Shown in pieces: positions 1 to 37,093 of a stretch of 64,000 nucleotides of DNA (the stretch's first letter is position 1; every line of letters starts with the position of its first letter). The translations under genes were made by a program, and so were the position numbers. The notes beneath the pieces are model-generated. The model saw only the letters and a program-made list of their open reading frames with translations. It did not search any database and was not told the DNA's origin. Origin of the DNA: an uncultured Bacteroidia bacterium (GTDB taxonomy: Bacteria; UBA4055); NCBI GenBank assembly GCA_964648295.1, contig CAZYNH010000004.1, forward strand, positions 613-64,612. The letters are read 5' to 3'.

Positions 1-923
1 TACTGACATCTCCCTATTGCGACGATATTACAGGCTACGCAGGTCCTTTGAAAGCAGTGTTGATCTCCGGGACGGACGGAAAAATATTGGGTGTGAAGTT
101 ATTATCACACAGAGAAACTCCTTCCTGGATCAGCGGGTTAGAAAGAATAAAATTCTTTGATTCGTGGAACGGGAAGTCAGTTACAGAACTCGCCGATCAC
201 ACCGTAGACGCAGTCTCGGGAGCGACCTATACAAGCAGAGCTGTCGATAAAATTATCAGGAAGCGGGCAGAAATATTTACCGGGAGATCAGAATATGTTA
301 CTTCGGGCCGGAAAACGGAAATCTCTGTATTAAGATCGCCGATTGATGTGGTTCTATATGTTATTTTATCTATTTCCTTGTTAGGAATATTCATAAAAAA
401 AATAAACAAGTACAGGATATTAATACAATTATCGTCTGTTATATTTTTTGGTATCATTTCAGGAAGATTTGTTTCAATATACCTGCTCGAAAGTATTTCG
501 GTTAACGGGATAAAATTATTTACTTCGTGGACAACAATACTCCTGCTTGCTTTCTCGATCCTTATACCGTTTATCTTTAACAGGCATTACTACTGTTATT
601 ATATCTGTCCTTTCGGAGGCGCGCAGACAATTCTTGGAAAACTGCCTGTAAAAAAGATTGTTCCGGGTGCCGGAACTATAAGGTTCTTCAGATTGCTGAG
701 GTTGCTGGTGTTCGTTTCGCTCACGGTACTGATATTACTTAATGTTAAGATCAATCTGACTCTTGTTGAGCCGTTTACTGTTTTCATGTTCTTCTCGGCT
801 TCGGCAATAACAATAACAGGAAGTGCCGTAATATTTATAGCCTCTGTTTTTATTAAAAATCCCTGGTGTATTTACCTCTGCCCCACGGGACAGTTCTTTG
901 ATCTGCTTAAAGACGGTGTGTGA
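1..923 (+). CDS. FMN-binding domain / 4Fe-4S ferredoxin-type polytopic membrane protein (NosR/NirI/NapH-like), 5' partial
   Basis: Frame is open to the window edge. N-terminal FMN_bind-like motif (VDAVSGATYTSRAV), then hydrophobic helices and two Cys motifs (CPFGG, CIYLCPTGQ) typical of membrane-bound ferredoxin-type proteins. Confidence 0.55.
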   Translation, partial: LTSPYCDDITGYAGPLKAVLISGTDGKILGVKLLSHRETPSWISGLERIKFFDSWNGKSVTELADHTVDAVSGATYTSRAVDKIIRKRAEIFTGRSEYVTSGRKTEISVLRSPIDVVLYVILSISLLGIFIKKINKYRILIQLSSVIFFGIISGRFVSIYLLESISVNGIKLFTSWTTILLLAFSILIPFIFNRHYYCYYICPFGGAQTILGKLPVKKIVPGAGTIRFFRLLRLLVFVSLTVLILLNVKINLTLVEPFTVFMFFSASAITITGSAVIFIASVFIKNPWCIYLCPTGQFFDLLKDGV

Positions 924-1011: not shown

Positions 1012-2598
1012 TTGGTAAGTAAAAGTTCCATAAATGTATTGCTTGTTGAGGAGAACGAAGATCATGCAATTTTGATAAGCAACTCATTTTTCAAGTACGG
1101 AGAAAAATATAATTTAATATCAGCCGATTCATTAAAAAAAGCTTTCGAATATTTTGACGATAAAACAGACATAATCGTAACTAATCTTTATCTGCCCGAC
1201 GGCAGCGGTATTGAGTTTCTTAAGAACAAATCTATTTGTGATGATATTCCTGTTATCGTTCTCGAAAGCTATGTGGACCAGGAAACAGTCGTAAAACTGC
1301 TTAAATCGGGAATTTTTGATTATGTGGGTAAATCAGCAGACATATTTGATTCTCTTCCGGAAAAAATTGATAAATATATTCAGTTGAGGGATTTAAAAAG
1401 GGAAAGGAGAAGGATATCCGAGCAGCAGAACATGCTCAGTATAGCTATAAAACACTCGTCAGAGGTTATTCTTGTTACTGACGAAAAAGGTATTATCGAA
1501 TTTGTCAATCCGGCGTTTGAAAAAACCACAGGTTATTCAGCTGATGAAGTAGTTGGTAAATCTCCCTCAATACTCAAAAGCGGCCAGCACGATAAAAATT
1601 TTTATGATGGCCTGTGGAAAACAATAAAATCAGGAAAACCGTGGAAAGGTCATCTGATAAATAAAAGAAAAGACGGATCAATATTTGAAGAGGACGCTTC
1701 CATCTCCCCTGTTTTTGGTGAAAAAGGTGTAATTACTAATTACGTGGCTTTGAAAAGAGATATTTCCGAATTAATAAATATTGAGAATCAACTCAGGCAT
1801 GCGCAAAAAATGGAAGGCATAGGCACTCTTGCCGCAGGGATTGCGCATGAAATCAATACACCGCTGCAATATTTGAATGACAACACTCTATTTATCAAAG
1901 AATCCTTCAAGGCGATGTGCGAGGCAATATCGGAGATAAAGAAGATAGCTGCCGAAAAGGATGCCGATAATATGGGCAGTAAGCTAAACGATATTATCAG
2001 AAAAAATAAGCTGGAGTACCTTGTTGATGAAATTCCTAATGCTCTGGATGAAAATCTGAACGGGATCAAAATAGTTCGTAAAATTGTAACAGCGATGAAG
2101 AATTTCTCCCATCCCGGGTTGAAGACAATGCAGAAAGCTGATATTAACGAAGCGATCAAGTCCACAATAACTATTACAAAAAATGTATGGAAATATAACG
2201 CGGAAATAGTTACCGATCTTATGGATAAACTCCCCGAGGTGAGCTGTCACATTGGAGACATAAACCAGGTATTCTTGAACATGATAACAAATTCCTGTGA
2301 CGCGATAGCTGAAAAAAGTAAAGATGATAAGGGAACAATCCGAATTTCAACATCCTGCGACAACAGTTATGTTTATATTACTATTGAAGACAACGGAAAT
2401 GGAATTCCAAAAGATATCAAAGACAAAATATTCCAACCTTTTTTTACAACAAAACAAGTTGGAAAAGGGACGGGACAGGGCCTTGCTTTAAGTTATGACA
2501 TTATCGTGAATAAACATAACGGGGAGATCAAGGTTGAATCAGAGCCCGGAACAGGAACAAAGTTTACAATTAAATTACCTGTTGAACCTAATGAATAA
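1012..2598 (+). CDS. Hybrid sensor histidine kinase: atypical receiver - PAS - HisKA - HATPase_c
   Basis: Receiver-like N-terminus ([11 protein letters not shown] ... [13 protein letters not shown]), PAS ([21 protein letters not shown]), H-box ([12 protein letters not shown]), ATPase G-boxes ([20 protein letters not shown]). Start is a TTG in the track. Confidence 0.85.
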
Positions 2599-2618: not shown

Positions 2619-3821
2619 ATGAACAAAAATTTCAGAATTCTGTTTGTTGACGATGAGGCACCGGTTCTTAACGGTATCAGGCGGATATTTCAGGCAAGAA
2701 GAAGCAACTGGGAACTGGTTTTCGCATCAAGCGGGAAAGAAGCAATTCAGAAGGTTTCTGTAATAGATTTCGACCTGATCGTTACAGACGGAAAAATGCC
2801 CGGAATGAGCGGAAGCGAGATGCTTAGAGAAATGAAGGTCCAGGGACTGACAAAAGATATTCCCACAATAATGCTGACGGGTTATGTTGACGACGACATG
2901 AGAAAGGAAGCTCTTGAGTGCGGGATAATCGAATTTGTCAATAAACCCGTTATTCCCGACGAGTTCGTACTCAGAATTGAAAATGTGCTGAACTTCAAAA
3001 TGATGCATGACGAGCTCAAAACTTCGACTGAGCAACTCACCACCGTAAACAGCGAGTTAAACAGGCTCTACGAGATAATAAGTACTCAAAAGAAAGAACT
3101 TGAAGAGCTTAATGAAATGAAAAGTCAATTCATTGAAATCGCGATGAACGAATTCAGAAGCTCAACAAAAGAGATATCTGAATATACTTCAGGATTAAGA
3201 GGATTGATGAACCCTGAAACAGATAAAGAAAAAATTGTGATAACTGAACGAATTATTCAGAGTGTTTCCGAACTGTCCGGAGTATACAGGAAGATCGTTA
3301 ATATTTCAGATATTACAACCGGAACCTTAAAACTTAATTATTCCCGGTCAAATGTTCTTAAATTTTTCAATGAGCTCATTGAGAATTCATCCCATGTCGC
3401 AGAGAAAAAGAATATTAAATTGATTTCTGAGCATGACAATATCCTGCCTGTAGAAAACTATATGGATACGAACAAAATATGGATAGCTGTTTCAAAACTA
3501 CTTGAAAATGCCGTAAAATTCTCCGAAACTACGAATAAAGTAGATTTTGGAATGAAATATTCGGACAATATGCTTAAGTTCATAATAAAGGACTACGGTA
3601 TAGGGATGAATGATGATCAGATGAGGAATCTGTTCTCATTCAACAACAGTGATAATGAAAACAAACAGGGTGTCAGCCTGCCTCTTGTTAAAAAAATTAT
3701 TGACGCTCATAAAGGTAATATATGCGTTGAGAGTAAATTCGGCGGCGGAACAAAATTTACCGTCTCGATACCTGTACTGGAAACAATTCCCGGAGAACTT
3801 GATAATGGGTCCGAATCATAA
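2619..3821 (+). CDS. Receiver domain fused to a histidine-kinase-like module lacking the phospho-acceptor His (putative pseudo-kinase)
   Basis: Canonical REC (ILFVDDE, LIVTDGKMPGMSG, EFVNKP), coiled-coil linker, DHp-like segment with Asn at the His position (FIEIAMNEFRSS), HATPase N-box and G1 present (LLENAVKFS, IKDYGIGM). RBS GGAG before the ATG. Confidence 0.75.
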   Translation: MNKNFRILFVDDEAPVLNGIRRIFQARRSNWELVFASSGKEAIQKVSVIDFDLIVTDGKMPGMSGSEMLREMKVQGLTKDIPTIMLTGYVDDDMRKEALECGIIEFVNKPVIPDEFVLRIENVLNFKMMHDELKTSTEQLTTVNSELNRLYEIISTQKKELEELNEMKSQFIEIAMNEFRSSTKEISEYTSGLRGLMNPETDKEKIVITERIIQSVSELSGVYRKIVNISDITTGTLKLNYSRSNVLKFFNELIENSSHVAEKKNIKLISEHDNILPVENYMDTNKIWIAVSKLLENAVKFSETTNKVDFGMKYSDNMLKFIIKDYGIGMNDDQMRNLFSFNNSDNENKQGVSLPLVKKIIDAHKGNICVESKFGGGTKFTVSIPVLETIPGELDNGSES

Positions 3822-5601
3822 GCTCAATTCTTTCTTCAAGAACTACTTCGTTTATCTCTCGATCTTCACGATTGAGATAATCTGTGTCGTTGCCTATTTT
3901 ACTTATAAAAATATTAACTTGCTCGCCAATTCCGCGCTTGTTGAAAAATACGGCCTTTCTAAGCTTTATGCTGATGACATTGATCAATTTTTGGAGGCTT
4001 ACAAGGCTACCGTAAGTCAATATTATGTAATGGCGGGCATTGTAATAGCATCGGTTGCAGCTTTTGCCGTAATCATTCACTATCTGATGAAAAAAAGGAT
4101 GACCGATGTCGAAAAAATGAACGCTCTTGAAGATCTGACAAGGGATACTTCAAAGATACTCAAGAGCGAGATCAAATACCGTTCTCTTTTTGAGAACAAC
4201 GGTACCGCTATACTCGTAGTCGGTGACGACGAGAATATAAGCGACTGCAATGAGAAATTCAGCGAACTTATAGGTTATTCCAAAGAAGAGATGATCAGAA
4301 ATATGCATTGGAGTAAAATTGTCCATCATGAAGATATCGAAAGGGTCAAAGGTTACGACAAGCTGAGAAGAACGAATCCCGCCAAGGCTCCTGCCGAATA
4401 TATGATGAAACTGAGAAGGAAAGACGGAACATACAGGCAGGTGATAGTCAATGTCATTGTGCTTCAGGGTACAGAGCAGCTAGCTTCCGTAATAGATATA
4501 ACCGATATGATCGAAAAAGACAGAGCTTTAAGGGAAAATCAGGAACTCCTTAATCAGGCACAGGAGATAGCCTCCATGGGCAGCTGGACCTATTATCCCG
4601 AAAACGATGAGCTTAAAGTATCAAAAGAATTCCTGAAAATCCTGGGTATTGACAAGATCACAGAACCCTTAACTCTGACATATCTGAAAAACCGGTTTGG
4701 GTTTGATCAGTTTTATAATGAAGTGTCAGGATTGAATAACTCCGCAGCCGGCTTAGACAAAGAAATTACTTATCTGGATGAAAAATCGCCTCTGTCAGAC
4801 AAAACCAAATATTTTAAGCTCAAAGCCAGAGCAGGATCAACAGCCGAGAAAGAATTGAAAATTACGGGCATAATTTTGGACATTACAGACAGAAAAAAGA
4901 TCGAAAATGAGATAAATAGGGCAAACGAGGAAATGAAAAACCTTATTTATGTTACAACTCATGATCTGCAGATACCGCTTATCTCAATAGAGGGCTTCTC
5001 TAATCTTCTTTTAAGATCATGCCAGAATATTGAGATCACTCAGGAAGCAAAAGATTACCTTGAAAGAATAAAATCGAATGTTAAAACTATGAGTTCGATG
5101 TTTAAGAATTTCTTTGACATCTCAAAGATTACCGCGATAAAGAATCCTTTTGAATACATAAAAACTTCCGATCTTATTAACCAGGTGGCAAGTGAGATGC
5201 GGATACTGACAGACAAATACGGATCTTCAGTTAAAATTGACTGCGGCAATCTCTTACCCGATATATATGGGGACAGAGAAAATCTTAGGCTCGTTTTTTA
5301 CCATTTGGTTTCTAACGGCATTATTTACGGCGGCAAAACCGTGACTGCCGGTTATGAAAAAAGTAAAGGGTTCTTTATAAAAGACGACGGCACCGGAATA
5401 TGTACAGATGATCTGGAGAGAATTTTCCTGCCCGGAATAAAACTTGAAAAAGAAGAGAATTATGAGGGCTCCGGCATGGGCTTGACTATATGCAGAAAAG
5501 TTATTGAGCTGCACAACGGAAAAATATGGGCTGAATCTGATGGAAAAGGCAAAGGAACAACAATTTTCTTCACACTTAGTAATGAACTAATCAGGGATTA
5601 A
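3805..5601 (+). CDS. Membrane-anchored PAS sensor histidine kinase
   Basis: Start refined from track ORF 3649 to the ATG at 3805 (MGPNHK), 17 nt overlap with the upstream stop. N-terminal TM helices, two PAS-like regions, H-box (THDLQIPL), HATPase (IKDDGTGI, GSGMGLTICRKV). Confidence 0.8.
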   Translation: MGPNHKLNSFFKNYFVYLSIFTIEIICVVAYFTYKNINLLANSALVEKYGLSKLYADDIDQFLEAYKATVSQYYVMAGIVIASVAAFAVIIHYLMKKRMTDVEKMNALEDLTRDTSKILKSEIKYRSLFENNGTAILVVGDDENISDCNEKFSELIGYSKEEMIRNMHWSKIVHHEDIERVKGYDKLRRTNPAKAPAEYMMKLRRKDGTYRQVIVNVIVLQGTEQLASVIDITDMIEKDRALRENQELLNQAQEIASMGSWTYYPENDELKVSKEFLKILGIDKITEPLTLTYLKNRFGFDQFYNEVSGLNNSAAGLDKEITYLDEKSPLSDKTKYFKLKARAGSTAEKELKITGIILDITDRKKIENEINRANEEMKNLIYVTTHDLQIPLISIEGFSNLLLRSCQNIEITQEAKDYLERIKSNVKTMSSMFKNFFDISKITAIKNPFEYIKTSDLINQVASEMRILTDKYGSSVKIDCGNLLPDIYGDRENLRLVFYHLVSNGIIYGGKTVTAGYEKSKGFFIKDDGTGICTDDLERIFLPGIKLEKEENYEGSGMGLTICRKVIELHNGKIWAESDGKGKGTTIFFTLSNELIRD

Positions 5602-5607
5602 TGTAAA

Positions 5608-7476
5608 ATGGCCATGAATTTATTTAGAATAAAAGAATTCCCGTCTGAAAAATCTTATCAGGATGCGGAGCTTCACTTATCAAAACAGGGTAAAAACTTT
5701 GTATTCATATGTAAACTGGAAGGAAAATATTTTGCGCAGTCTGACGATAATATATACGGAGCTTTTGACTCGGTAGAAAATGTAACATTTAGAAAAGAAG
5801 GAAAAATATTCGCCTTCAAGTCTTCAACTTTTTCAAAAAAATTAGGGGTTATAAAAGACGAAAATCAGGACTCTTTATACATTAACAATAAAATATTGGG
5901 CCCGTTCACAAAAATAAGGGATTTCAAAATAAACGACAATCTAACATATTACATATGGTATGAAACCTTCGGGAATTCGTATGTTATTATCAACAATAAC
6001 AAATTGGGAAGCTTTAAAAGCGTATATCAGGTAACTATGGCTCAGGACGGAACATCGTATGCTTTGATATACAAAGACGGCGGAAAAAAATATTTGCGAA
6101 TTAATGATGAAATATTTGGAGGATACGAAGAAATATTCGACTTTGTCTGCGATTATGAAAAAGGTTTTACCGGTTTTGTTTTCAAAAATTTATCAGGCGA
6201 GTATTACGCAAGAATTAATAACACGGAGATAGGTCCGTTCGGGAGTTGTACGGGTCTCAATTATTTTGCGGACATAAATAAATATCAGATTGAATACAAA
6301 AAAGACGCCGCAAATTTCATACAGATCAACGAAAGTGTTTTCTCGGGATCGGATACATATCAGGTAGAATTGATAAACGAATCTCTGGCTGTAATTAAAT
6401 GCTTCAAAGACAAATTGAGTTCTTATAATATCGTTGCCTGGGAGATCGGTTCTTTTAACGATGTTATTGAGTATCGGATAAGTAATTCAGGAAAGAAATT
6501 CATCTTTGTGTATGTAAAATTCAACCAGTATTTTGTTGTAGCCGGTGATTACGAATATGGCCCGTACAAAAAAGTCTCAAACTTATCAATAAGCCCGAAC
6601 GGAGAGAATTATTCATTTATTTTTACAAATCAGCATTACAATTATTATGCCAATATAAACGGGAATACTTACGGACCTTACATCTTAATAAACGAGACAG
6701 CTGTATCTGATTCACCCTCCGCCTTCGGATTTATTTTCCAGAGAAACTCTAAGTATTTTGTTAACATTTCCGACACGATACACGGAATGTATGATTCTGC
6801 TTTAAATTTAAAACTGTCACCCGACGGTTCCCTTTATTCATACATGTTCACTAAAAAAATAAAAATAAATCAGCTTTATTCAAAGCTGCAAAGTTATTTG
6901 TCACTTAATGGTGAAGTATCTGAAAATGACATAGCTATAATAGATCTTCAGAGAAACTCAATGCAAATAGAAGCAATCGTATTTAAAAAGAACTCAAAAT
7001 GGTATATCAGCCTTAACGAGACTATGTTCGGCCCTTATGACCATATAGCTGACTGGAGATTTTTAACCGACGAAACGCTTTTTTCATTCAGGTTCAAAAA
7101 CCTGCAATCTGATTTCTACAATCTTCAAATAAACGGCAGAACATATTATTCCCGAAACAAAAATCTGCAGGTACATTCACCCGTATTCAGCCGGGACGGA
7201 ACAAAATTTGCCTTTATTCATTATTCCGACATCCATTATTACATACAAATATGCGATCAAACCTACGGCCCTTTTGATCATGCCGACCTGCCGACTTTCT
7301 CACCGGACAGTAAAATGGCAGTATTCAGGTACATTGAGTCAAAAAAGACATATTTAAACATAAACGGCATGAAGACCGGACCTTTCGGAGTGGCTGAATA
7401 CACATTCTCTGACGGAAAGCTTTATACATGTTATCTTCAGGACAAGACGATCATAATTGACGAGATCACATGGTAA
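5608..7476 (+). CDS. Hypothetical protein with about 13-14 degenerate tandem repeats of ~37 aa (possible beta-propeller-like fold)
   Basis: Repeat consensus roughly YY-x-IN-x3-YGPY/F ... SPDG-x-Y-F, PD40-like but no confident family match. No signal peptide or TM helix. Last gene of the plus-strand kinase operon. Confidence 0.5.
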   Translation: MAMNLFRIKEFPSEKSYQDAELHLSKQGKNFVFICKLEGKYFAQSDDNIYGAFDSVENVTFRKEGKIFAFKSSTFSKKLGVIKDENQDSLYINNKILGPFTKIRDFKINDNLTYYIWYETFGNSYVIINNNKLGSFKSVYQVTMAQDGTSYALIYKDGGKKYLRINDEIFGGYEEIFDFVCDYEKGFTGFVFKNLSGEYYARINNTEIGPFGSCTGLNYFADINKYQIEYKKDAANFIQINESVFSGSDTYQVELINESLAVIKCFKDKLSSYNIVAWEIGSFNDVIEYRISNSGKKFIFVYVKFNQYFVVAGDYEYGPYKKVSNLSISPNGENYSFIFTNQHYNYYANINGNTYGPYILINETAVSDSPSAFGFIFQRNSKYFVNISDTIHGMYDSALNLKLSPDGSLYSYMFTKKIKINQLYSKLQSYLSLNGEVSENDIAIIDLQRNSMQIEAIVFKKNSKWYISLNETMFGPYDHIADWRFLTDETLFSFRFKNLQSDFYNLQINGRTYYSRNKNLQVHSPVFSRDGTKFAFIHYSDIHYYIQICDQTYGPFDHADLPTFSPDSKMAVFRYIESKKTYLNINGMKTGPFGVAEYTFSDGKLYTCYLQDKTIIIDEITW

Positions 7477-9780
7477 TCAGTTTTTGAGTATTTCTTTTAC
7501 GTTTTCGACTAAAGACTGTCTTGAAAAAGGTTTCTGTAAATAGATCTTATTTTTATCCAGCAGACTGAAATCCATTATAGTGCTTTCTGTATAGCCGGAC
7601 ATATATATGACCTTTGCCTCAGGGTACTTTTCGAGCAGCTTCTCACCTATCTCATCACCATTCATATCCGGCATGATAACATCCGTTATCAACAGATCAA
7701 TTTTTTCGGTTTCGTAAAATTTCATAATATCTTCAAAAGATGAGGCGCAAAAAACATTAAATCCTTCCTGCTCAAGCATTTTAGCCACTACATCCCTTAT
7801 TTCTTTCTCATCATCGATCACTACGATTTTTTCACCGTGCGGCTCTACATTCTCATACTGTTTGATCTCTTTCTCTATATATTCTTCAGCATCTGCTGAC
7901 GGAAGGTATATTTTGAAACAAGTCCCTCTACCGGGTTCGCTGTAACAGGACACATATCCGTTGCTCTGTTTCACTATCCCGTAAACCGTTGAAAGACCCA
8001 GTCCTGTACCCTTTCCCAAGCCTTTTGTGGTAAAAAACGGCTCAAATATTTTGTCCACTGTTTCTTTTGTCATTCCTGTACCGGTGTCAGTTACGGCAAT
8101 CATCGCATAACTTCCGGGTTTAAGTTCAGAGTATTTTTTTATATAATTATCATCTATCTTTACATTCTTAGTCTCTATCGTTATCTTCCCGCCTTTGGGC
8201 ATGGCGTCCCTTGCGTTGATCACCAGATTCATTATCACCTGATCCATCTGTCCTTTATCAGCCTTCACCGGACTGATCCGCGGTTCAAGAACAGCTACCG
8301 TGTCAATTCTCTCTCCGACCAGTCTTTTTATCATTTTCTCAAGATCGTTGACTATTGTATTCAGATCTATTATCTGAGGTTTCAGAACCTGTTTCCGGCT
8401 GAATGCGAGAAGCTGACTTGTCAGTTCGGCTGCCCGCTGCCCGCTTTTTTTTATCTCGATGATATCTTCCGTAAGAGTGTCATCATTCTTCGATCTTGCA
8501 AGTATTAAATCGCAGTTGCAGAGAACCACCATAAGCAGATTGTTAAAATCGTGAGCTATTCCGCCGGCCAAAAGACCAATCGCTTCCATTTTCTGAGATT
8601 GCCTGAACTGTTCCTCAAGCTCTTTCTGTTCAGTGACATCATGTACTATTCCAAGCATTTTTGCGGTCTTTCCGTACCTGTTCTTCTCGAATTGTGCTTT
8701 TACATGAATTTTCCTTAAAGAACCGTCCTTTCTTTTAATCGAATGAATTTTTTCAAAAGGCTTACACTCGTTTATTGCCCTTGTAAATTCGGCGTTGATT
8801 TCATCTCTTTCATCTTCCGGAATGAAACTCATATACAACTTATAGTCCGGTTTTGTTGAAGATTGATCTAATCCAAAAATTCTGTATACTTCATCAGTCC
8901 AGGTAAAATCCATTGTTTTACTGTCAAAGATCCAACTGCCGACATGCACAATTTCCTGTGTTCTTCTAAGCAGAGCTTCATTAGATTTTAATTTATTTTC
9001 AGCTTTGATCTTCATTGTCATATCCAGCCCCACACAGAGTAATCCCGAAATGTCAAAATATTCGTTCTTAATCTGCGACACATGCCATTCGACAAATAGA
9101 CTTCCCCCCTCTTTCTTTGTTATTCTTGTTACACAACTCGAATCGATTTCAGTTGTTAGGCACTTGGTAAAAAAATCGGCGGCTGATTTTTGATAATTAA
9201 GGGACACATAATTTTTTATAAGACTTTTATTCCTTGCTTCTTCCACTCTGTAGCCGGTTATATCTCTGAAAAACTCATTTACATTCACAATGTTGAATTT
9301 CCCGTCGATCACCATTATAATAGCTTTTGCAGTGTTTATTATGTTATCTGACAGCTGTTTTTGTGAGATCAGATTGTCAAGCGCTTTTTTTCTTTCGATA
9401 GAATGCCTTATAGCTCTTATTAGTGCGTCTTTATCAAATTTCCCTTTAATAAGATAATCCTGAGCCCCAATACTAAGCACTTTCTTTATTATCCTTATAT
9501 CGTCACTTCCTGTTAAGGCAATGACCGGTAAAGTGGGATTCTCGTTAATTATCATCATGGGAGCTTCAGCTCCCACGCACCCGGGCAGCCCGAGATCGAC
9601 AAGGGCAATATCATAGCGCATGAACTCAAAATCTTCCAGAGCACTGTCAATATCTTTAAAATGACTTATCTCAGCGTCCGCGTAATCGAGCATTTCTTCT
9701 ATCAGTACCGCGTCTCCGTCATTGTCTTCGACAATAGCGATCTTAAGATTTTTATCCATTTTTACATCTCCGTTCATCAT
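7477..9780 (-). CDS. Hybrid sensor histidine kinase: REC - PAS x2 - HisKA - HATPase_c - REC
   Basis: N-terminal REC (KIAIVEDNDGD, ALVDLGLPG), PAS regions, H-box (IAHDFNNLL), HATPase (VTDTGTGM, GLGKGTGLGLS), C-terminal REC (KIVVIDDE, LLITDVIMPDMNG). True start may be the internal Met at about 9759. Confidence 0.85.
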   Translation of the reverse strand: MMNGDVKMDKNLKIAIVEDNDGDAVLIEEMLDYADAEISHFKDIDSALEDFEFMRYDIALVDLGLPGCVGAEAPMMIINENPTLPVIALTGSDDIRIIKKVLSIGAQDYLIKGKFDKDALIRAIRHSIERKKALDNLISQKQLSDNIINTAKAIIMVIDGKFNIVNVNEFFRDITGYRVEEARNKSLIKNYVSLNYQKSAADFFTKCLTTEIDSSCVTRITKKEGGSLFVEWHVSQIKNEYFDISGLLCVGLDMTMKIKAENKLKSNEALLRRTQEIVHVGSWIFDSKTMDFTWTDEVYRIFGLDQSSTKPDYKLYMSFIPEDERDEINAEFTRAINECKPFEKIHSIKRKDGSLRKIHVKAQFEKNRYGKTAKMLGIVHDVTEQKELEEQFRQSQKMEAIGLLAGGIAHDFNNLLMVVLCNCDLILARSKNDDTLTEDIIEIKKSGQRAAELTSQLLAFSRKQVLKPQIIDLNTIVNDLEKMIKRLVGERIDTVAVLEPRISPVKADKGQMDQVIMNLVINARDAMPKGGKITIETKNVKIDDNYIKKYSELKPGSYAMIAVTDTGTGMTKETVDKIFEPFFTTKGLGKGTGLGLSTVYGIVKQSNGYVSCYSEPGRGTCFKIYLPSADAEEYIEKEIKQYENVEPHGEKIVVIDDEKEIRDVVAKMLEQEGFNVFCASSFEDIMKFYETEKIDLLITDVIMPDMNGDEIGEKLLEKYPEAKVIYMSGYTESTIMDFSLLDKNKIYLQKPFSRQSLVENVKEILKN

Positions 9781-16745: not shown

Positions 16746-18284
16746 CTAATACTTAGGCTCTTTTCCCGCTTCTTTCAGAAGCTTATTTATCTCTTCCTTC
16801 AGTTCGGTCATTCTGATCTCCCTGTCAACCATAAGTTCGTTGAACTTTCTAAGCTCTTCTGCTTTGGCAATAAGATCATCATGTGCTATTTTTCTTTTGG
16901 ATATGTCTTCAAAAACAACGGCAAATTCATTTTCCCGTGTCCTGTACGCATAAACTTTGTACCATTTCTTGAGTACGGACGAATAATTCTCAAAAGTTTC
17001 GGGAATACCTGATCTTGTTATTTCGGCATACTTTTCTATCCAAAAATCCTCAACACCCGGCAAAATTTCTTTACAATTTCTGCCAACTACCTTTTCTCTT
17101 ACCAGTCCCGTCATTCTCTCAAAGCTCGGATTTATCTCAATGAACCTGTAGTCAACAGGATTACCGTTTTCATCGTAGATCATTTCATGGACTGCCATAG
17201 CAAGTTCCATTTCGTTTATCATAGCTCTGATCTTTTCATCACTTTCGGCTTTCAGCTTTAAATAGTCTGAAATGTCCTTTCCAATTCCTATGAGACACAC
17301 CTCTTCTTCCATATTTACGGTTTTTGCAGAAAATAATGCTTTGAATTCTTCATCGTTTCTTTTTAGTCTGACTTCCGCATTATTGATTTCGCCCTTTTCT
17401 TCCATTATATCTACGATATTTTCTCTTTGTCTGACATCCGCCCAGATATTTAACTCAGGTGTTTTCTTGCCGATAACGGTTTTATCAAAATTGAATAAAT
17501 CATAAAAACTACGATTGGCATTCAGTATCAGTCCGTCAGATAATCTCGTCAGAGTAACAGGATCAGGTATTGTGTTGAAAAGAAGCTCGAAGTGTTCCTT
17601 TGATATTCGCAATTCTTCGGATACTTTTTCATTTACAAGAACAATATAACCGAAAGTCCATATTATACTAACTACAAGACCTGATGAAAATGATAATAGA
17701 TTGACAGGATGAGAATCGAACATATCCTTCAGATCATAAAGATTGTTTACAACAGCGTATAGTCTAAGTACCAGTACTGCTGAATAAATGATAAAAGTAA
17801 ACGAAAGCAGTTTTTGAAGCTTCTTCCTTTTTCCTGAATTTTTATAAAGGCTCAACCCCACTAAAATTGAATATACGAGCAGATATAAATTGACAGTAAA
17901 AGATCTGATAGCAAGATCGTCTTTAAAAAAACTGAAAAATACGAGTACAAATAAATAGACCGCTGAAGTTATTATGATCGACCGGTAATTACGCGGTAAT
18001 CCGAGATATTTTAGAGTACCCAGATACAAGGATATGATCGCTGATAAAAGAAATGTGTTTTGAAAGACTACCACAAAGTTAAAAATGCTTTGAAAATCCC
18101 TGAAAAACATGACAGAGAATCCTAATGATTCGAAAATGCTCCACAGAAGCCAGTATTTAATGTCTTTATAATTTTTATTGTGTTTCAGCTGATGTGAAAA
18201 GACCACGATCTGAATTAACCGTGTAAGAACCATTATCATTATGATCGTCTTTATGTCCGGAACCATGATCGTTACCCCAAGCAT
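16746..18284 (-). CDS. Polytopic membrane PAS sensor protein with no output domain
   Basis: About six N-terminal TM helices, two PAS-like regions, then a C-terminal coiled-coil stub (LMVDREIRMTELKEEINKLLKEAGKEPKY). No HisKA or HATPase. Confidence 0.6.
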   Translation of the reverse strand: MLGVTIMVPDIKTIIMIMVLTRLIQIVVFSHQLKHNKNYKDIKYWLLWSIFESLGFSVMFFRDFQSIFNFVVVFQNTFLLSAIISLYLGTLKYLGLPRNYRSIIITSAVYLFVLVFFSFFKDDLAIRSFTVNLYLLVYSILVGLSLYKNSGKRKKLQKLLSFTFIIYSAVLVLRLYAVVNNLYDLKDMFDSHPVNLLSFSSGLVVSIIWTFGYIVLVNEKVSEELRISKEHFELLFNTIPDPVTLTRLSDGLILNANRSFYDLFNFDKTVIGKKTPELNIWADVRQRENIVDIMEEKGEINNAEVRLKRNDEEFKALFSAKTVNMEEEVCLIGIGKDISDYLKLKAESDEKIRAMINEMELAMAVHEMIYDENGNPVDYRFIEINPSFERMTGLVREKVVGRNCKEILPGVEDFWIEKYAEITRSGIPETFENYSSVLKKWYKVYAYRTRENEFAVVFEDISKRKIAHDDLIAKAEELRKFNELMVDREIRMTELKEEINKLLKEAGKEPKY

Positions 18285-18323
18285 TTGTTATATCTCGCTT
18301 AGCTTTATTTCCTGCATTAAGAA

Positions 18324-20195
18324 TCAAATATCATATTTTTCTTCCTTACCCAGTTCTTTTAAAAGTTCGTTCACTTCCTTTTTGAGTTCGATCATCTTCA
18401 ATTCTCTTCCGACCATAAGAGAATTCATTTCTGTGAGCTCATAGTTCTTTTTTCTCATTTCCTCTTTATAAGCTTTTTCTTCGGTAATGTCTCTTGCTGA
18501 AGATATTCCGCCAAGAATATTTCCTTTTTCATCTTTATTGACTTTACACCACCATGCCAGCAATCTGACTTTGCCGTCTTTTCTTCTCTGATAGCTTTCT
18601 ACATAGATAACATCCTCCTTACCCCTGAATAACGGCTCGACCATGTCATAAGTATTTTGCTCACCCTCAAAATAATAGGATGCTTCCTTTCCGATAACAT
18701 CGTCCCCGAAGAATTCGTATCCTGCTTTATTCGCCCATGTGTATAGCTTATTATTATCAACTTCCATTATAATTTCAGGTACAGTTTCAAGAACAGCGCT
18801 ATGTTTAAATGCTAAACTCATCAGACTTTCTTCCGCAGCTTTTTGCTCGGTAATATCTCTGAATACACAATATGTTTGTTTGAATCTGCCGCTGAAATCA
18901 TAAGCCACAACACCTTCAAATATGACATTTATATAGTCACCGGATTTTTTTTTAAGAGTGAAATGAATATCGTTAACAGTTCCTGAAACTTTAAATTGAG
19001 GAAAACGATTCCTGAAAGTTTCGATCATGTCTGGATGAAGCAGATCTCCGAACCATTTTCCGATAACATCCTCCCTGTTATATCCCAGTATAGAAAGCCA
19101 TTTCGGATTTACATCTATGATCAGACCGTTCTCATCAAGAGACTGATACGGAACGGGAGCATAGTCATACAGGGATTTGAACTTTTTTTCGCTTTCAATC
19201 AGTTCGTTCTCCATGATCTTAAATTTCGTTATTTCTGTTGTCATTCCGCAGACACCCGAAATGATACCGTTTTCTTCTGTTACAGGAAACTTTACTGATA
19301 GAAAATATTTTTTACCATCACCAGTTTCTAAGATTTCTTCAATTTCGACAGCTTTTCCCGATTTAAGTACATTCATATCATTATTATAAAATCTATCCGC
19401 ATTCTCTTTTGAAAAAACTTCATGATCTGTTTTTCCGATCACGTTCTCACGCCTCAGACCGGTGGCCTCTTCCCATCTGCCGTTGATTAAAAGGTATTTG
19501 CCATTCTTTTCCTTTACGAATACCAGTGCGCCGCTGTTCTCGATTAGTTCGGAAAGGAATCTTTCATTTTTCTTAATACGGTTTACATATCCTGCTTTTT
19601 CCAGGTTGTCTGAAATGATCTTGCCTATCAGGATAGTGGCTATCGGATAGATTGTTATTACCGGCAAAGCGAGATTCTCGATCGTTTTCCATACCGCATC
19701 TTTCGGTAAAGTGAACATCAGAAGAATCATTGCGGCGTGTACAATTATTCCCAATAGAAGGAGTATGGTAACGCTTAACTTGTGACCTTTACGGTAAATT
19801 CTGTAATGGAACAGCAGCCCTATGATCGCCGATGCTGATATGACAGAGACTCCCATTACTGCCCCGCCGCCTCCCATTTGAATGCGAAATAGAGCAGCCA
19901 TAACTGCGCTAATTAAGGCTGATACGGGTCCGAAGAACAGTGCACACAAGCTGATCACTACCGATCTGCCGTCAAAAATTATGCCGGGCGCGAAATTAAC
20001 CGGATAAAGCAGGCCTATTACGGCGACCGAACCGAAGAGCAGGCCGTGGAGTACCGATTTTTGAATATCGGAAATTTTCTCCCTCTGCCCGATAAATGCC
20101 GTGACTACGCTCAAAGCCACCAGCAGCGAAAGGTTATATGTAAGCTGCAGAAATATCATACCGGCACTTCCAAGAATACTAAAATTAATCCTCAC
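18324..20195 (-). CDS. Membrane sensor with 5TMR-LYT-like N-terminus and about three PAS domains, no output domain
   Basis: Five TM helices with a GxxFDGR-type motif (IIFDGRSVV) as I recall for LytS/YhcK-type receptors; PAS regions; C-terminal stub (LMVGRELKMIELKKEVNELLKELGKEEKY) homologous to the tail of the previous gene. Confidence 0.6.
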   Translation of the reverse strand: MRINFSILGSAGMIFLQLTYNLSLLVALSVVTAFIGQREKISDIQKSVLHGLLFGSVAVIGLLYPVNFAPGIIFDGRSVVISLCALFFGPVSALISAVMAALFRIQMGGGGAVMGVSVISASAIIGLLFHYRIYRKGHKLSVTILLLLGIIVHAAMILLMFTLPKDAVWKTIENLALPVITIYPIATILIGKIISDNLEKAGYVNRIKKNERFLSELIENSGALVFVKEKNGKYLLINGRWEEATGLRRENVIGKTDHEVFSKENADRFYNNDMNVLKSGKAVEIEEILETGDGKKYFLSVKFPVTEENGIISGVCGMTTEITKFKIMENELIESEKKFKSLYDYAPVPYQSLDENGLIIDVNPKWLSILGYNREDVIGKWFGDLLHPDMIETFRNRFPQFKVSGTVNDIHFTLKKKSGDYINVIFEGVVAYDFSGRFKQTYCVFRDITEQKAAEESLMSLAFKHSAVLETVPEIIMEVDNNKLYTWANKAGYEFFGDDVIGKEASYYFEGEQNTYDMVEPLFRGKEDVIYVESYQRRKDGKVRLLAWWCKVNKDEKGNILGGISSARDITEEKAYKEEMRKKNYELTEMNSLMVGRELKMIELKKEVNELLKELGKEEKYDI

Positions 20196-27495: not shown

Positions 27496-27632
27496 GCCTC
27501 CGGATTATGTATCATAATGACAATATAATCTTTGTTCTCTCAAATTCAAGCAAAATAATTATTGTTTTTTTATAATCGCATAAGTCATAATAATTGTATA
27601 TATTACAGATCAAAATAAATCGGAACAGGATA

Positions 27633-30600
27633 ATGAGCAGATCCCTTTCTATTTTCATACTCTTCACTTTAACCTTTCTATTCCCGTTCGGCAAAAATAA
27701 AGTTCAGTACCACGATTTTGACTGGAATTTCATAGAAACGGATCATTTCAGGATATATTTCTACCGGGGCGGCGAACACCTTGCGGAATTCACCGCCGAA
27801 GCCGCTGAAATGTCGCTTGAATTCTTAAGAAGGGATATGATGTTCGTTCCGAGGTCAAAAGTGCATGTGATCGTATATAACTCCCACAACCATTTTGAGG
27901 AAACGAATGTGATGGGCGGCATCCCGGAGGAATCGGTCGGCGGTTTCACGGAATTCTTCAAGAACAGGGTCGTGGTGCCGTATGAAGGCAACTGGGAAGG
28001 GTTCAGGCATGTGATACATCATGAACTCACGCACGCGATCATGAACCAGATGCTGTTCCAGGGCAATTACCAGTCCATCGTGGCCGGATTAAGCAAGATG
28101 AACATGCCGCTTTGGTTCATTGAAGGAATAGCCGAATACGAAAGCCGGGGAGGGTGGGACAGCGAATCCGACCAGACAGTAAGGGACGCGGTATATCACA
28201 ATTACATCGGCAATGTCTACTATCTCAACAATTACATGGCATACAAAGGCGGCCAGTCCCTTTTCAAATACATTGCTGACACTTACGGAAGCAAGAAGAT
28301 CGGAGAGGTACTAAGATCTATAAACATGATAAGGTCGGTCGAGGACGCGTTCTTAGACGCCATAGGCACGAATTTTACCGATCTCTCACAGAACTGGGAT
28401 AAATGGCTTAAAACGAAGTATTGGGACAGCCTGATAAAGACTGATGAGCCTAAAGCGGTCGCGACGATGCTTTCTGACCATGAGAAATACGGAAATTCGA
28501 TAAACAACTCCCCCGTCATCAGCCCTGACGGGAAAAAGATAGTTTTTTTGAGCAACAAATCAGATTATTTTGATATATATCTGATGCGTACTTTCGACGG
28601 AGAGATAATAAGGAAGATAGTTTCAGGCCAGTCGTCAGGGGATTTTGAGGAATTCCACTGGCTGAGACCCGGTTTCGCATGGTCGCCGGACAGCCGGTAC
28701 ATAGCGTTCTTCACCAAAAGTTCAGAGCAGGACGCTCTGTTCATTTATGAAGCCGAGACCGGTAAAAGGGTCAAAAGGTTAAAATTCGGTTTAGACGGCC
28801 TGTATTATCCCGAGTGGTCCCGCGACGGAAAGCACCTGTGTTTTACCGGAATAAAGGACGGTTTCTCCGATATCTATCTTTACACCTTAGACAGCGGCGA
28901 GCTCAAAAAACTGACCGACGACATTTATTCGGACAATGAGCCGAAATTCTCCCCTGACGGGAAAAAGATCGCTTTTTCTTCAGACAGAAAGAGAGATCTG
29001 ACCATTGATAAAAAGGAGCTCTCGAATATCCTTAACAGAAATCTGAATGTAAAAGACATTTTTATTCTCGATATTGAATCGGACACCATACATCCCGTCA
29101 CAGAGCCCGACGGGTTCAGAAAATTCTCTCCTTTCTGGATAGACGACAACAGGCTCGGATTTATATCTGACGGGTCAGGTATTTCGAATCTGTACTATAA
29201 GGATATCGAAGCGGATGAAACAACCGGGCTGACCAATTTTATGACAGGCTGCTCTCAGGCATCATATAACGACAATAAGATAGCTTTTACTGCGGTCTTC
29301 AAAGCCGGTTACGATATTTTCATGATCGAGGACGCCGAGAAACTGATAAAAGAAAAAAAAGAGCCCTTATATGTGAGATGGTATGAGGAAACGGACTTCT
29401 CAAAGAAGCCTGCCGAAAAAGATTCGACTTTTGACTACACAAAGACCGATCTGAGAAAATTCAGATTCTCAAAGAACATGCTCGGTAAAGTCTCTGAGGA
29501 AATACTCTCCGACGACCAGAGGTCGCGGCTGAGAACGCCTAAGCCATACGAGATTAAGTTCACGCCTGACATCATAACTGTCAACGCAGGATACGCGACC
29601 GGGTACGGGGTCGTGGGTTCCGCCTACCTTCAGTTCTCGGATTACCTTTCCGACCACAGCTTTATAATAATGACAGATTTAAATCAGGATCTCCTTAACT
29701 CAAATCTAGGATTTTATTATTATTACCTCAAAAAAAGGATAAATCTCGGAATGGGCCTCAGCCATGATGTTGTCTATTATTACATCTGGAACGAAGACGA
29801 CCTTACCGCGAACGACTGGTACAGGGACAGGCTTCTGGGATTTCATCTCATGGCTCAATATCCTTTCAGCAGGTATTCCAGGATAGACTCATATCTGAAT
29901 GTCAAAAGCGTGGTCAATGAGGTTTACAGCATCCCTGCAGAAGACTATATTCACGGAAGCACGAATACGATCTTCACATTCGGGGGCGGATATTCGTACG
30001 ACAATGTGATCTGGGGCTATTACGGGCCCGAGAACGGAACAAGGGTCAGGCTCGAAGCGCTTTACGGGTCGGAAACGGACGATATTTCCTTAAAAGATCC
30101 CTCGACAGCATATTTTTCGACTTTCGGGCTCGATTACAGAAAATACTTCAGGATAAAAGGCGATTATCAGCTGGCATTCAGGTTATCGGGCGCACTAAGC
30201 GAGGGAAGCACTCCCCAGAAATTCTATCTTGGAGGATTATCCAACTGGCTGAATTACAGATTTAATACCGATCACGATTTTGAGACTGTGATAGACAAAT
30301 ACTATTCTTCATACGAATATCCTCTGAGAGGGTTCAGGCTTCTGGAGAAATCCGGGAACAGATACGCTCTTTTTAACACCGAGTTCAGATATCCCTTTAT
30401 AAAGTATTTAGCACTCGGATTCCCTCTTCCGGTGGTATTGGGAAACATAAGCGGGGTTCTTTTTTCAGATGTCGGCAGCGCGTGGAACAATTCGGATTTC
30501 AGGGGAACGGTAAAATATGACGGCGAGAACCGGAGGCTGAACGACATTCTTTTCTCTTCAGGCATAGGTTCAAGGATGAATGTCGGGTATTTCATACTCC

Positions 30601-30683
30601 GTTATGATGTCTCATGGACATGGGATTTCGGATCGTCAAGCTCAAAACCTATGCACATATTCAGCCTGGGGGCAAATTACTAA
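27633..30683 (+). CDS. Putative outer-membrane protein: HExxH metallopeptidase-like domain, PD40 beta-propeller repeats, Omp85/surface-antigen-like beta-barrel
   Basis: Start refined to the ATG at 27633 (MSRSLSIFILF, signal peptide; AGGA RBS). HExxH (HELTHAIMNQ); PD40-type repeats (SPDGKKIVFLS, SPDSRYIAFF, SPDGKKIAFSS); C-terminal FYLGGxxxLRGF-like motif and aromatic-rich tail. Confidence 0.6.
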   Translation: MSRSLSIFILFTLTFLFPFGKNKVQYHDFDWNFIETDHFRIYFYRGGEHLAEFTAEAAEMSLEFLRRDMMFVPRSKVHVIVYNSHNHFEETNVMGGIPEESVGGFTEFFKNRVVVPYEGNWEGFRHVIHHELTHAIMNQMLFQGNYQSIVAGLSKMNMPLWFIEGIAEYESRGGWDSESDQTVRDAVYHNYIGNVYYLNNYMAYKGGQSLFKYIADTYGSKKIGEVLRSINMIRSVEDAFLDAIGTNFTDLSQNWDKWLKTKYWDSLIKTDEPKAVATMLSDHEKYGNSINNSPVISPDGKKIVFLSNKSDYFDIYLMRTFDGEIIRKIVSGQSSGDFEEFHWLRPGFAWSPDSRYIAFFTKSSEQDALFIYEAETGKRVKRLKFGLDGLYYPEWSRDGKHLCFTGIKDGFSDIYLYTLDSGELKKLTDDIYSDNEPKFSPDGKKIAFSSDRKRDLTIDKKELSNILNRNLNVKDIFILDIESDTIHPVTEPDGFRKFSPFWIDDNRLGFISDGSGISNLYYKDIEADETTGLTNFMTGCSQASYNDNKIAFTAVFKAGYDIFMIEDAEKLIKEKKEPLYVRWYEETDFSKKPAEKDSTFDYTKTDLRKFRFSKNMLGKVSEEILSDDQRSRLRTPKPYEIKFTPDIITVNAGYATGYGVVGSAYLQFSDYLSDHSFIIMTDLNQDLLNSNLGFYYYYLKKRINLGMGLSHDVVYYYIWNEDDLTANDWYRDRLLGFHLMAQYPFSRYSRIDSYLNVKSVVNEVYSIPAEDYIHGSTNTIFTFGGGYSYDNVIWGYYGPENGTRVRLEALYGSETDDISLKDPSTAYFSTFGLDYRKYFRIKGDYQLAFRLSGALSEGSTPQKFYLGGLSNWLNYRFNTDHDFETVIDKYYSSYEYPLRGFRLLEKSGNRYALFNTEFRYPFIKYLALGFPLPVVLGNISGVLFSDVGSAWNNSDFRGTVKYDGENRRLNDILFSSGIGSRMNVGYFILRYDVSWTWDFGSSSSKPMHIFSLGANY

Positions 30684-35597: not shown

Positions 35598-36491
35598 TTA
35601 AAGCCATTTGTATATTTCAGGATCCCATTTTAGCGTTAGATCGGAAGGATTAATTACAGGCACGATAAAATTCTTAATATCTGATATTATGGCAGAAAAA
35701 GATTCCGGTAATCCGTTCTGTCTGATCTTTTTTCTAAACGCTTTCCATTGTACTGTCTTAGATTCTGCAAAATCATTAGAAAAAGCTGTTATGTTTCGAT
35801 CTAGTATGACATTCCTATGATTAAAAGTCTTTTGTAATGATTCAGACAATATTCTCATTTCAAAAGTAAAATTATGCGAAAGCAGCCAGATATCATAAAA
35901 ATCTTTCATGCGGCTGTTCAAAATCCCGAGAGTCGTCATCGCTTCAAACTTCTCTGCTATAGCAGTTTCTTTAGAATAGCTTAAAATAACAGGATTAGGA
36001 AAATCAAGAATAACCGGGAATTCAATCTTCTGAGGCTCAGGAAAAGTCAGGTCGTTAAATCCGACATCAACCTGCATATAAATTCTTGCTGTATCAAGTT
36101 TTGCATAGAAGGTAACTCTCACACCGTGATATTCGGCATCATGTTTGATGAGGGCAGTGCTGATCGTTTCGGAAAAGAATTTTATTCCGTCATCTTCTAC
36201 CTTTGTATTTAAGATATTCCTGAATACTTCTCTGATATTTTCTTCTGAGTTTTCAAGTTTTCCCAAAAGATCAATATCCTTTGTCAGCCTGAGATTACTA
36301 TTTCTCCAAATTGTAAAAAGTAATGCTCCTTTAAGAATAAACCTGTCTGAATATTCCGATCTTGAAATTCTGTATAATAATCTTTCCATTGCGTAAAGGT
36401 TCAGGATTTCATCGAATTGTACTGTTTCCGTTTTAGACTTGTTTTTGAGTCTTTCTCTGACCGAAAATGCCATATTTTTAATTACTTTCAT
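35598..36491 (-). CDS. AbiEii/AbiGii-family nucleotidyltransferase toxin (type IV TA / abortive infection)
   Basis: N-terminal region typical of DUF1814/AbiEii (ERLLYRISRSEYSDRFILKGALLF, DIDLLG); about 297 aa; 4-nt overlap with the upstream AbiEi-like gene. Confidence 0.75.
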   Translation of the reverse strand: MKVIKNMAFSVRERLKNKSKTETVQFDEILNLYAMERLLYRISRSEYSDRFILKGALLFTIWRNSNLRLTKDIDLLGKLENSEENIREVFRNILNTKVEDDGIKFFSETISTALIKHDAEYHGVRVTFYAKLDTARIYMQVDVGFNDLTFPEPQKIEFPVILDFPNPVILSYSKETAIAEKFEAMTTLGILNSRMKDFYDIWLLSHNFTFEMRILSESLQKTFNHRNVILDRNITAFSNDFAESKTVQWKAFRKKIRQNGLPESFSAIISDIKNFIVPVINPSDLTLKWDPEIYKWL

Positions 36492-37093
36492 ACTACTGCC
36501 TCAAGATATGGCTGCATCACTTTAACAACACGGCTCATTTTTGCGTATTCATATATTTTATTTACATCCATTCTGCCTCGTTCACGGTAAAACTTCAGAG
36601 CTTCGATCGCTACATCAAGACCGATCTTATTTCTGAACCTGAAACAGTCCACAAGTGTTTTTTCCGGATCATAAACTTTTATTTTTACTCCGTCAATTGT
36701 ATGCTCTTCGATCCCGGCTGAATAAATATCCGGTTTCAGATAATGCACATCAAGACGAATTCCGTTTACTGTCGGAGGTCTGGATCTTTCGATTATGGCG
36801 ATACTTACAGATCTTTGTATCTGTGTTGTCATTCTATGAAAAACGAGTGCGGATATCAGAAAAATTACTGCTTTTGATGATTTTGAGCAAACAAGCTGAA
36901 TATCCGGATAAGAAAAGTTCTGAGCTGATGCGAGTCTGTAAACTCCTCTCGTAATTTTTTCGAAAATACCCTTCTTTACCATCGAAGAAAGGTGATAACG
37001 GCTTATACCAGACCTGACAGCTTCAGACATTCTCATCTGACCGCCATGTTCTCTGAATATTTCCAGCATTTTTTTAGTCATAACATTGAACAT
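36488..37093 (-). CDS. AbiEi-family antitoxin / transcriptional regulator
   Basis: N-terminal wHTH-like segment (EAVRSGISRYHLSSMVKKGIFEKITRGVYRL); size and position immediately upstream of the AbiEii-like gene. Confidence 0.7.
   Translation of the reverse strand: MFNVMTKKMLEIFREHGGQMRMSEAVRSGISRYHLSSMVKKGIFEKITRGVYRLASAQNFSYPDIQLVCSKSSKAVIFLISALVFHRMTTQIQRSVSIAIIERSRPPTVNGIRLDVHYLKPDIYSAGIEEHTIDGVKIKVYDPEKTLVDCFRFRNKIGLDVAIEALKFYRERGRMDVNKIYEYAKMSRVVKVMQPYLEAVV

Follow-up and report, generated by a model that had tools for sequence, protein, structure and literature searches.

A predicted cytoplasmic double beta-propeller protein encoded among histidine kinase genes of an uncultured Bacteroidia bacterium

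Beta-propellers encoded in, or fused to, two-component systems have been described as extracytoplasmic modules. Reg_prop domains form the periplasmic propellers of hybrid kinases. WalA, a predicted beta-propeller lipoprotein encoded in the wal operon of C. difficile, is thought to modulate the kinase (PMC9210968); it was the only example that we found when searching the literature for propellers that act as cytoplasmic accessories of histidine kinases, and it is extracytoplasmic. Here, we analyzed a 64,000-nucleotide (nt) stretch of DNA from an uncultured Bacteroidia bacterium (contig CAZYNH010000004.1 of assembly GCA_964648295.1; hereafter, the window), in which the gene for a 622-amino-acid (aa) repeat protein (5608..7476, + strand) stands at the end of a row of histidine kinase genes. 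In contrast to the WalA and Reg_prop modules, this protein is a separate, cytoplasmic one, and it is predicted to form a double propeller. Tandem (double) beta-propellers are found among its closest known systems, e.g., in tricorn protease, EML1, Aip1, and Utp/IFT subunits. From gene linkage and the predicted fold, we consider that the 622-aa protein may be an adaptor, a scaffold, or a trans-acting input or output module for the neighboring kinases HK1 and HK2 and possibly for single-domain receivers; we put the probability of this reading at roughly 0.5.

Repeats, predicted fold, and family relationships of the 622-aa protein

The open reading frame (ORF) begins with an ATG codon and lies on the + strand exactly where a preliminary description of this DNA, made from the sequence alone, had placed it. 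Autocorrelation of the translated protein with the BLOSUM62 matrix peaked at lags of 37 (z 5.4), 75 (z 6.2), and 147 (z 4.4) residues, compared with a 95th percentile of 3.6 for the highest z at any lag in 500 shuffled sequences. The peak at lag 75 exceeds that at lag 37, a hint of a two-blade super-repeat. A hidden Markov model (HMM) of the repeat, built from 140 units of ten distant relatives only and thus leaving out the 622-aa protein and its orthologs, scored 188 bits on the protein, while the maximum in 200 shuffled sequences was 4.9 bits. This HMM delimits 12 units of more than 5 bits and two partial ones; two more degenerate units (at about aa 247 and aa 435) were seen by eye in the alignment of the units and in the predicted structure, which brings the total to about 15-16 units of about 37 aa with the consensus 'k.Y.(i/v)NG..yGP(Y/F)d.v..l.fSpDG..(y/f)aF.(f/y)'. 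The degenerate repeats of about 37 aa noted in the preliminary description are thus real, but their number is slightly higher than the 13-14 given there. Its statement that the protein possesses neither a signal peptide nor a transmembrane (TM) helix was borne out as well, since we found no hydrophobic segment along the entire 622-aa protein.

The full-length AlphaFold2 model, calculated from an 18-sequence alignment, is an all-beta structure with about 61 strands, four per repeat (predicted local distance difference test score [pLDDT] 89.4; predicted template modeling score [pTM] 0.71). A Foldseek comparison of this model with the PDB, a check named in the preliminary description, returned tandem-propeller proteins at E values of about 1e-11, although with global TM-scores of only about 0.2. 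Because of these low global scores, the C-terminal half was predicted separately, and it gave a pLDDT of 91.9 and a pTM of 0.82. The structural matches of the 622-aa model were propellers without exception, and its antiparallel four-stranded sheets, repeated in a ring, are those by which the beta-propeller class is defined. The N-terminal half (aa 1-296; 5608..6495, +) is predicted to form a first propeller of about seven to eight four-stranded blades, since the DSSP string of the full-length model shows about 29 strands there; its pLDDT is above 90 apart from the loop at aa 77-84. The C-terminal half (aa 297-622; 6496..7473, +) is predicted to form a second propeller with eight blades (32 strands). 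The boundary between the halves was set from the strand count and from the ability of the C-terminal half to fold alone in the prediction. Taken from these models, the 622-aa protein would consist of two beta-propeller rings, each with about eight short (37-aa) four-stranded blades of the PD40/TmcD-like type. The preliminary description could not place the protein in a named family; sequence models, AlphaFold2, and Foldseek now allow us to place it as a probable beta-propeller of PD40/TmcD-like blades.

Several conserved elements lie off the repeat pattern. The loop LGVIKDENQD (aa 79-88; 5842..5871, +) contains the second most conserved 9-mer among 16 orthologs (0.88), and part of it falls in the one stretch of the model (aa 77-84) whose pLDDT is below 50. 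High conservation combined with a low pLDDT is typical of a segment that becomes ordered upon partner binding, and the loop is therefore a candidate contact element. HGMY (aa 392-395) and SRNKNLQ (aa 515-521) are further conserved elements among the orthologs, and we regard them as candidate contact elements, too.

Among named sequence models, only the NCBIfam model TmcD_fam (NF045725) matched the 622-aa protein significantly (E 3.5e-15; 55.8 bits), and it matched 17 of 18 aligned homologs (best E 5.7e-23). However, the match covers only profile positions 274-406 of 412, and the curated cut-off of this equivalog model is 440 bits over the full 412-position profile; we therefore rejected an assignment of the protein as a TmcD equivalog. 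TmcD, a subunit of the Desulfovibrio TmcABCD electron transfer complex, accompanies TmcABC in sulfate reducers; it is built from the same kind of about 37-aa blade and, like the 622-aa protein, is taken to be cytoplasmic. The two differ in length (622 aa versus the 412-position TmcD profile) and in their hosts (Delongbacteria versus Desulfobacterota). TmcD of D. vulgaris is reportedly rich in tryptophan; the 622-aa protein, with 0.8% Trp (and 1.0% Cys), is not. No domain of the TmcA (cytochrome c3), TmcB (Fe-S), or TmcC (membrane cytochrome b) type was found in the 20 window ORFs that we scanned (positions 48-36491). An AlphaFold model of TmcD is mentioned in the literature (PMC10553843).

The Pfam model PD40 (PF07676) scored 19.5 bits (E 9.5e-4) on a single stretch of the protein (aa 559-574), against a gathering threshold of 20.9 bits; one ortholog (P0004) has a precomputed PF07676 match. 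In comparison with PD40/TolB-type propellers, the blades of the 622-aa protein are shorter (37 aa) and carry an extra 'Y.iNG..yGP(Y/F)' hairpin absent from PD40, and TolB-type proteins are periplasmic whereas the 622-aa protein is cytoplasmic. We rejected GYF_2 (PF14237), which scored 14.2 bits against a gathering threshold of 25.8 bits over the first 20 of 50 profile positions and resembles the protein only in the 'Y..nG...GP(Y/F)' hairpin. A NOMO1-like Pfam match was sub-threshold, and neither WD40 (PF00400; GH...WD blades of about 40-44 aa) nor Reg_prop (PF07494) matched at E values up to 1; unlike a Reg_prop domain, the 622-aa protein is not fused to a kinase and lacks an export signal. 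Searches of PDB chains by sequence, both with the single sequence and with an ortholog profile, found nothing related, and a match to a CAAX protease (E 0.06) was discarded as a chance hit. No catalytic, cofactor-binding, or ligand-binding motif was recognised by the Pfam, NCBIfam, and PDB-chain sequence searches.

Conserved linkage of the propeller gene to kinase genes

A wide profile search was run against 1.84 billion representative proteins and uncovered a large repeat family (2717 clusters at E values up to 1e-3; 778 at 1e-10). Only three clusters (P0007, P0019, and P0018) aligned over the full length, and one of these, P0018, was placed outside the orthogroup, since it shares just 29% identity, carries a signal peptide, and stems from a short contig without kinases. 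Of 52 sampled relatives, 37 gave sub-threshold matches to TmcD_fam, 11 matched GYF_2, 10 matched PD40, and two matched WD40; a few of the 52 possess additional domains (SLH, peptidoglycan-binding, caspase, or PEGA). A hydrophobic stretch at the N-terminus, which points to secretion or anchoring, is present in 119 of 147 distant relatives (about 80%), compared with none of the 18 members of the orthogroup. From the profile search and from these domain and N-terminus counts, the repeat emerges as a common and mostly extracytoplasmic PD40/TmcD-like blade that lacks a Pfam model of its own. Judged by its N-terminus, the 622-aa protein belongs to a putatively cytoplasmic offshoot of this mostly secreted family. 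It has 17 full-length orthologs (49-54% identity), and wherever the sources name an organism, the hosts of the offshoot are metagenome-assembled genomes of Candidatus Delongbacteria or UBP11.

In the window, the propeller gene is preceded by three kinase-type genes on the same strand. HK1 (1012..2598, +) encodes a cytoplasmic REC-PAS-kinase protein with the H-box AHEINTPL and is a conserved operon partner, and HK2 (2619..3821, +) encodes a pseudo-kinase. HK3 (3805..5601, +), directly upstream of the propeller gene, encodes a PAS-HisKA-HATPase kinase with two TM helices. The ORF list starts HK3 at a GTG codon (3649) inside HK2; however, the in-frame ATG at 3805 is the probable start, giving a protein of 598 aa that matches the 595-596 aa of its orthologs, has two TM helices at its N-terminus, joined by a short loop, and overlaps the end of HK2 by 17 nt. 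The three upstream kinase genes of the preliminary description are thus present, but the middle one, HK2, lacks the phospho-acceptor His. The HK3 stop codon (5599-5601) lies 6 nt ahead of the propeller ATG, and a Shine-Dalgarno-like AGGGA (5593..5597, +) is found within the 3' end of HK3, 10 nt before this ATG. The short gap (4-6 nt in close orthologs) suggests that the propeller gene is co-transcribed with, and translationally coupled to, the kinase genes. On the other side, a gene for a REC-PAS-HisKA-HATPase-REC hybrid kinase (7477..9780, - strand) converges on the propeller gene. Its stop codon begins at 7477, directly after the propeller stop codon, so the abutment on a convergent block was described correctly; positions 7474-7479 leave no room for a spacer or a terminator, and at orthologous loci the convergent pair overlaps by 4-23 nt. 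Stop codons that abut or overlap in this way imply that the two genes are transcribed into each other.

Each retrieved locus was searched with HMMs that we derived from the HATPase and REC domains encoded in the window. The same gene order was found at the loci L001-L006 and L009-L014, and close orthologs (49-54% identity) keep it with gaps of 4-6 nt. Since the whole region from pstB-phoU onward is syntenic in this close clade (pstB, phoU, a TPR gene, and small ORFs), its gene order alone proves little. A divergent clade, represented by the propeller orthologs of L013 and L008 (35-36% identity), has different flanks, with an usher-type gene upstream and no HK3-type gene between HK2 and the propeller gene at either locus; HK3 is present in the close clade only. 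Nonetheless, orthologs of HK1 (57%) and HK2 (52-53%) still precede the propeller gene: that of HK1 stands two genes upstream in L013, and those of HK2 stand directly upstream in both loci. A REC-only gene follows about 3 nt downstream of the propeller gene in this clade, and in L013 more co-directional kinase genes come next; the L013 propeller gene thus sits within a co-directional two-component run with gaps of 40 nt and 3 nt. The REC-only gene of L013 shares 36-39% identity with the REC genes of the window, and its orthology is ambiguous.

Kinase genes adjoin the propeller gene in every ortholog locus, and HK1 and HK2 precede it in all of them. In contrast, 16 non-orthologous repeat loci (L007, L015-L029) from Patescibacteria, Bacteroidales, Ignavibacteriaceae, Spirochaetota, and Flavobacteriales were free of HATPase and REC genes over distances of up to 10 kb, and three cytoplasmic-looking relatives (P0023, P0085, and P0047) likewise have no two-component neighbors. 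Kept in L013 and L008 and absent from the non-orthologous loci, the linkage is specific to the orthogroup and survives rearrangement. It is conserved beyond general synteny, as would be expected of an accessory or partner gene of a two-component system. Co-occurrence with kinase clusters, a check named in the preliminary description, is seen even in the clade of 35-36% identity, and the cautious view taken there, in which the repeat protein is a candidate for a partner or a target of the network, gains support.

HK2 and the possible role of the propeller protein

HK2 is the most constant neighbor of the propeller gene. By Pfam, this protein has neither a HisKA domain nor a PAS or other input domain, and it consists of a REC domain, a degenerate DHp, and a CA domain only. 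In an alignment of 23 members, the phospho-acceptor residues of the REC domain (D57, T87, and K109) are invariant, while the H-box 'QFIEIAMN(D/E)FR' carries a nearly invariant Asn (N177) at the acceptor His site, which is Asp in L013. The N, G1, and F boxes of the CA domain are kept, and its G2 box is degenerate ('KQGVSLP'). The HK2 family is sharply bounded, with 29 clusters down to about 48% identity, below which only an unrelated architecture appears; the members named by any source are from Delongbacteria only, and this is the same phylogenetic range as that of the propeller. DivL of Caulobacter is a pseudo-histidine kinase that works via protein binding and has a Tyr in place of the acceptor His. 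It is not known to have a propeller partner, and it shares with HK2 a retained kinase fold without the acceptor His. By analogy, HK2, a pseudo-kinase that bears a receiver, probably signals through protein contacts, and a large interaction platform encoded beside it would be a plausible partner.

The propeller gene and its neighbors are part of a signalling island of about 26 kb (1012-27495, both strands) with at least 14 kinase, receiver, or PAS genes. Its sensor types include SBP_bac_3, NMT1, and 5TMR-LYT, and three of its receivers are single-domain proteins. We recognised no DNA-binding, cyclase, GGDEF, or other classical output domain between 1012 and 27495, and the propeller protein is the only one encoded there without a kinase, receiver, or PAS domain. 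Just upstream of the island lies a gene cut by the edge of the window (1..923, +; its frame is open to the window start), which codes for a polytopic FMN_bind and Fer4_5 membrane redox protein with about five hydrophobic segments, NosR/NapH-like by its domain content. This gene heads the row in the close clade only (orthologs in L001-L006). It was absent among the genes scanned around the HK1-HK2-propeller core of L013, and L008 is too short to tell.

According to the reading proposed at the outset, the double propeller would provide a soluble cytoplasmic platform for protein-protein interactions that is co-transcribed with two-component genes. By binding one or more of the kinase or receiver proteins, it would shape phosphotransfer within a network of many kinases that lacks a classical output domain. 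A more far-reaching version, in which the propeller is the hub or the output of the entire network of about 26 kb and phosphorylation of the REC domain of HK2 (or of single-domain receivers) controls docking on the propeller, is in our view unlikely; if true, it would add a new class of connector to bacterial two-component signalling, namely a cytoplasmic beta-propeller that arose from a TmcD/PD40-like family of mostly secreted proteins. Several observations weigh against the proposed signalling role. Between the clades, the propeller diverges faster than its neighbors (35-36% identity versus 52-57% for HK1 and HK2), and the repeat family has no tie to signalling at the 16 other loci and the three cytoplasmic-looking relatives. 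Since all orthologs stem, moreover, from a single candidate phylum, inherited gene order may account for part of the linkage.

These same observations favor the view that the propeller is a bystander, i.e., a lineage-specific structural or repeat protein kept at the end of the kinase row by inherited gene order only, and the synteny of the entire close-clade neighborhood would fit with it. It is hard, however, to reconcile this view with the persistence of the HK1/HK2 adjacency in L013 and L008, two loci with otherwise different flanks. The co-directional run with its short gaps in L013, the 4-6 nt gaps of the close clade, and the shared phylogenetic range of propeller and HK2 speak against it, too, and we hold it to be unlikely. 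Equally unlikely to be right as the hub proposal is that the propeller acts as a trans-acting cytoplasmic sensor, which binds a small molecule or a peptide at its faces or central channels and, once liganded, modulates HK2. Ligand binding at the top face or in the central pore is common among propellers, HK2 has no sensor domain of its own, and the orthologs share the conserved non-repeat elements LGVIKDENQD, HGMY, and SRNKNLQ; yet no ligand-binding motif or cofactor site was recognised, and a ligand sensor would be a special case of the scaffold or module proposed above rather than a true alternative to it.

Least probable of all, in our judgment, is that the propeller is a TmcD-like subunit that docks from the cytoplasm on the FMN_bind/Fer4_5 membrane protein, with the kinases merely regulating or sensing this redox module. 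TmcD_fam is the one named model that matches the protein and nearly all of its aligned homologs, the FMN_bind/Fer4_5 gene stands ahead of the kinases in the window and in L001-L006, and the tmc clusters of Desulfococcus and D. vulgaris likewise adjoin histidine kinase and response regulator genes (PMC5109826). The TmcD_fam match is nevertheless partial and far below its cut-off, the scanned ORFs lack TmcA-, TmcB-, and TmcC-type domains, the Trp and Cys contents of the protein are low, and the conserved core of L013 keeps its propeller gene with no FMN_bind/Fer4_5 gene among the genes scanned around it. An adaptor or scaffold, or an input or output module, for HK1 and HK2 remains the reading that we prefer.

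Other genes of the window and significance

Two kinase-less sensor-type proteins are encoded within the island at 16746-20195 (-), one with 5TMR-LYT and two PAS domains (623 aa) and one with PAS domains only (512 aa); they may be split or accessory sensors. Just beyond the island, a 1029-aa protein (27594-30683, +) carries canonical PD40 repeats and a Peptidase_MA_2 domain. It does not contain the 37-aa repeat, and within the window the repeat HMM matched the ORF at 5608-7476 only. Further downstream (35598-37093, -), a gene for an AbiEii-type nucleotidyltransferase toxin (type IV toxin-antitoxin) precedes a 201-aa ORF, which overlaps its start and may encode the antitoxin.

The fold class of the 622-aa protein is ordinary, and PD40 and the TmcD model already describe its blade type loosely. 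In the literature that we searched, the cytoplasmic double-propeller orthogroup, its restriction to Delongbacteria, and its pairing with a His-less, REC-bearing pseudo-kinase in a two-component operon appear to be undescribed. The orthogroup does not extend beyond one uncultured candidate phylum, and the role that we propose is drawn from the linkage of the genes and the fold predicted for the protein. Little is understood of bacterial two-component networks in which many kinases occur with no obvious output, and most known accessory proteins are small or extracytoplasmic. As a large cytoplasmic protein whose gene accompanies that of a pseudo-kinase with a receiver domain, the propeller would be a concrete scaffold or connector candidate for such networks. 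It would also offer a first functional handle on a widespread TmcD-like repeat family that Pfam does not model as such and for which our sequence searches detected no solved structure.

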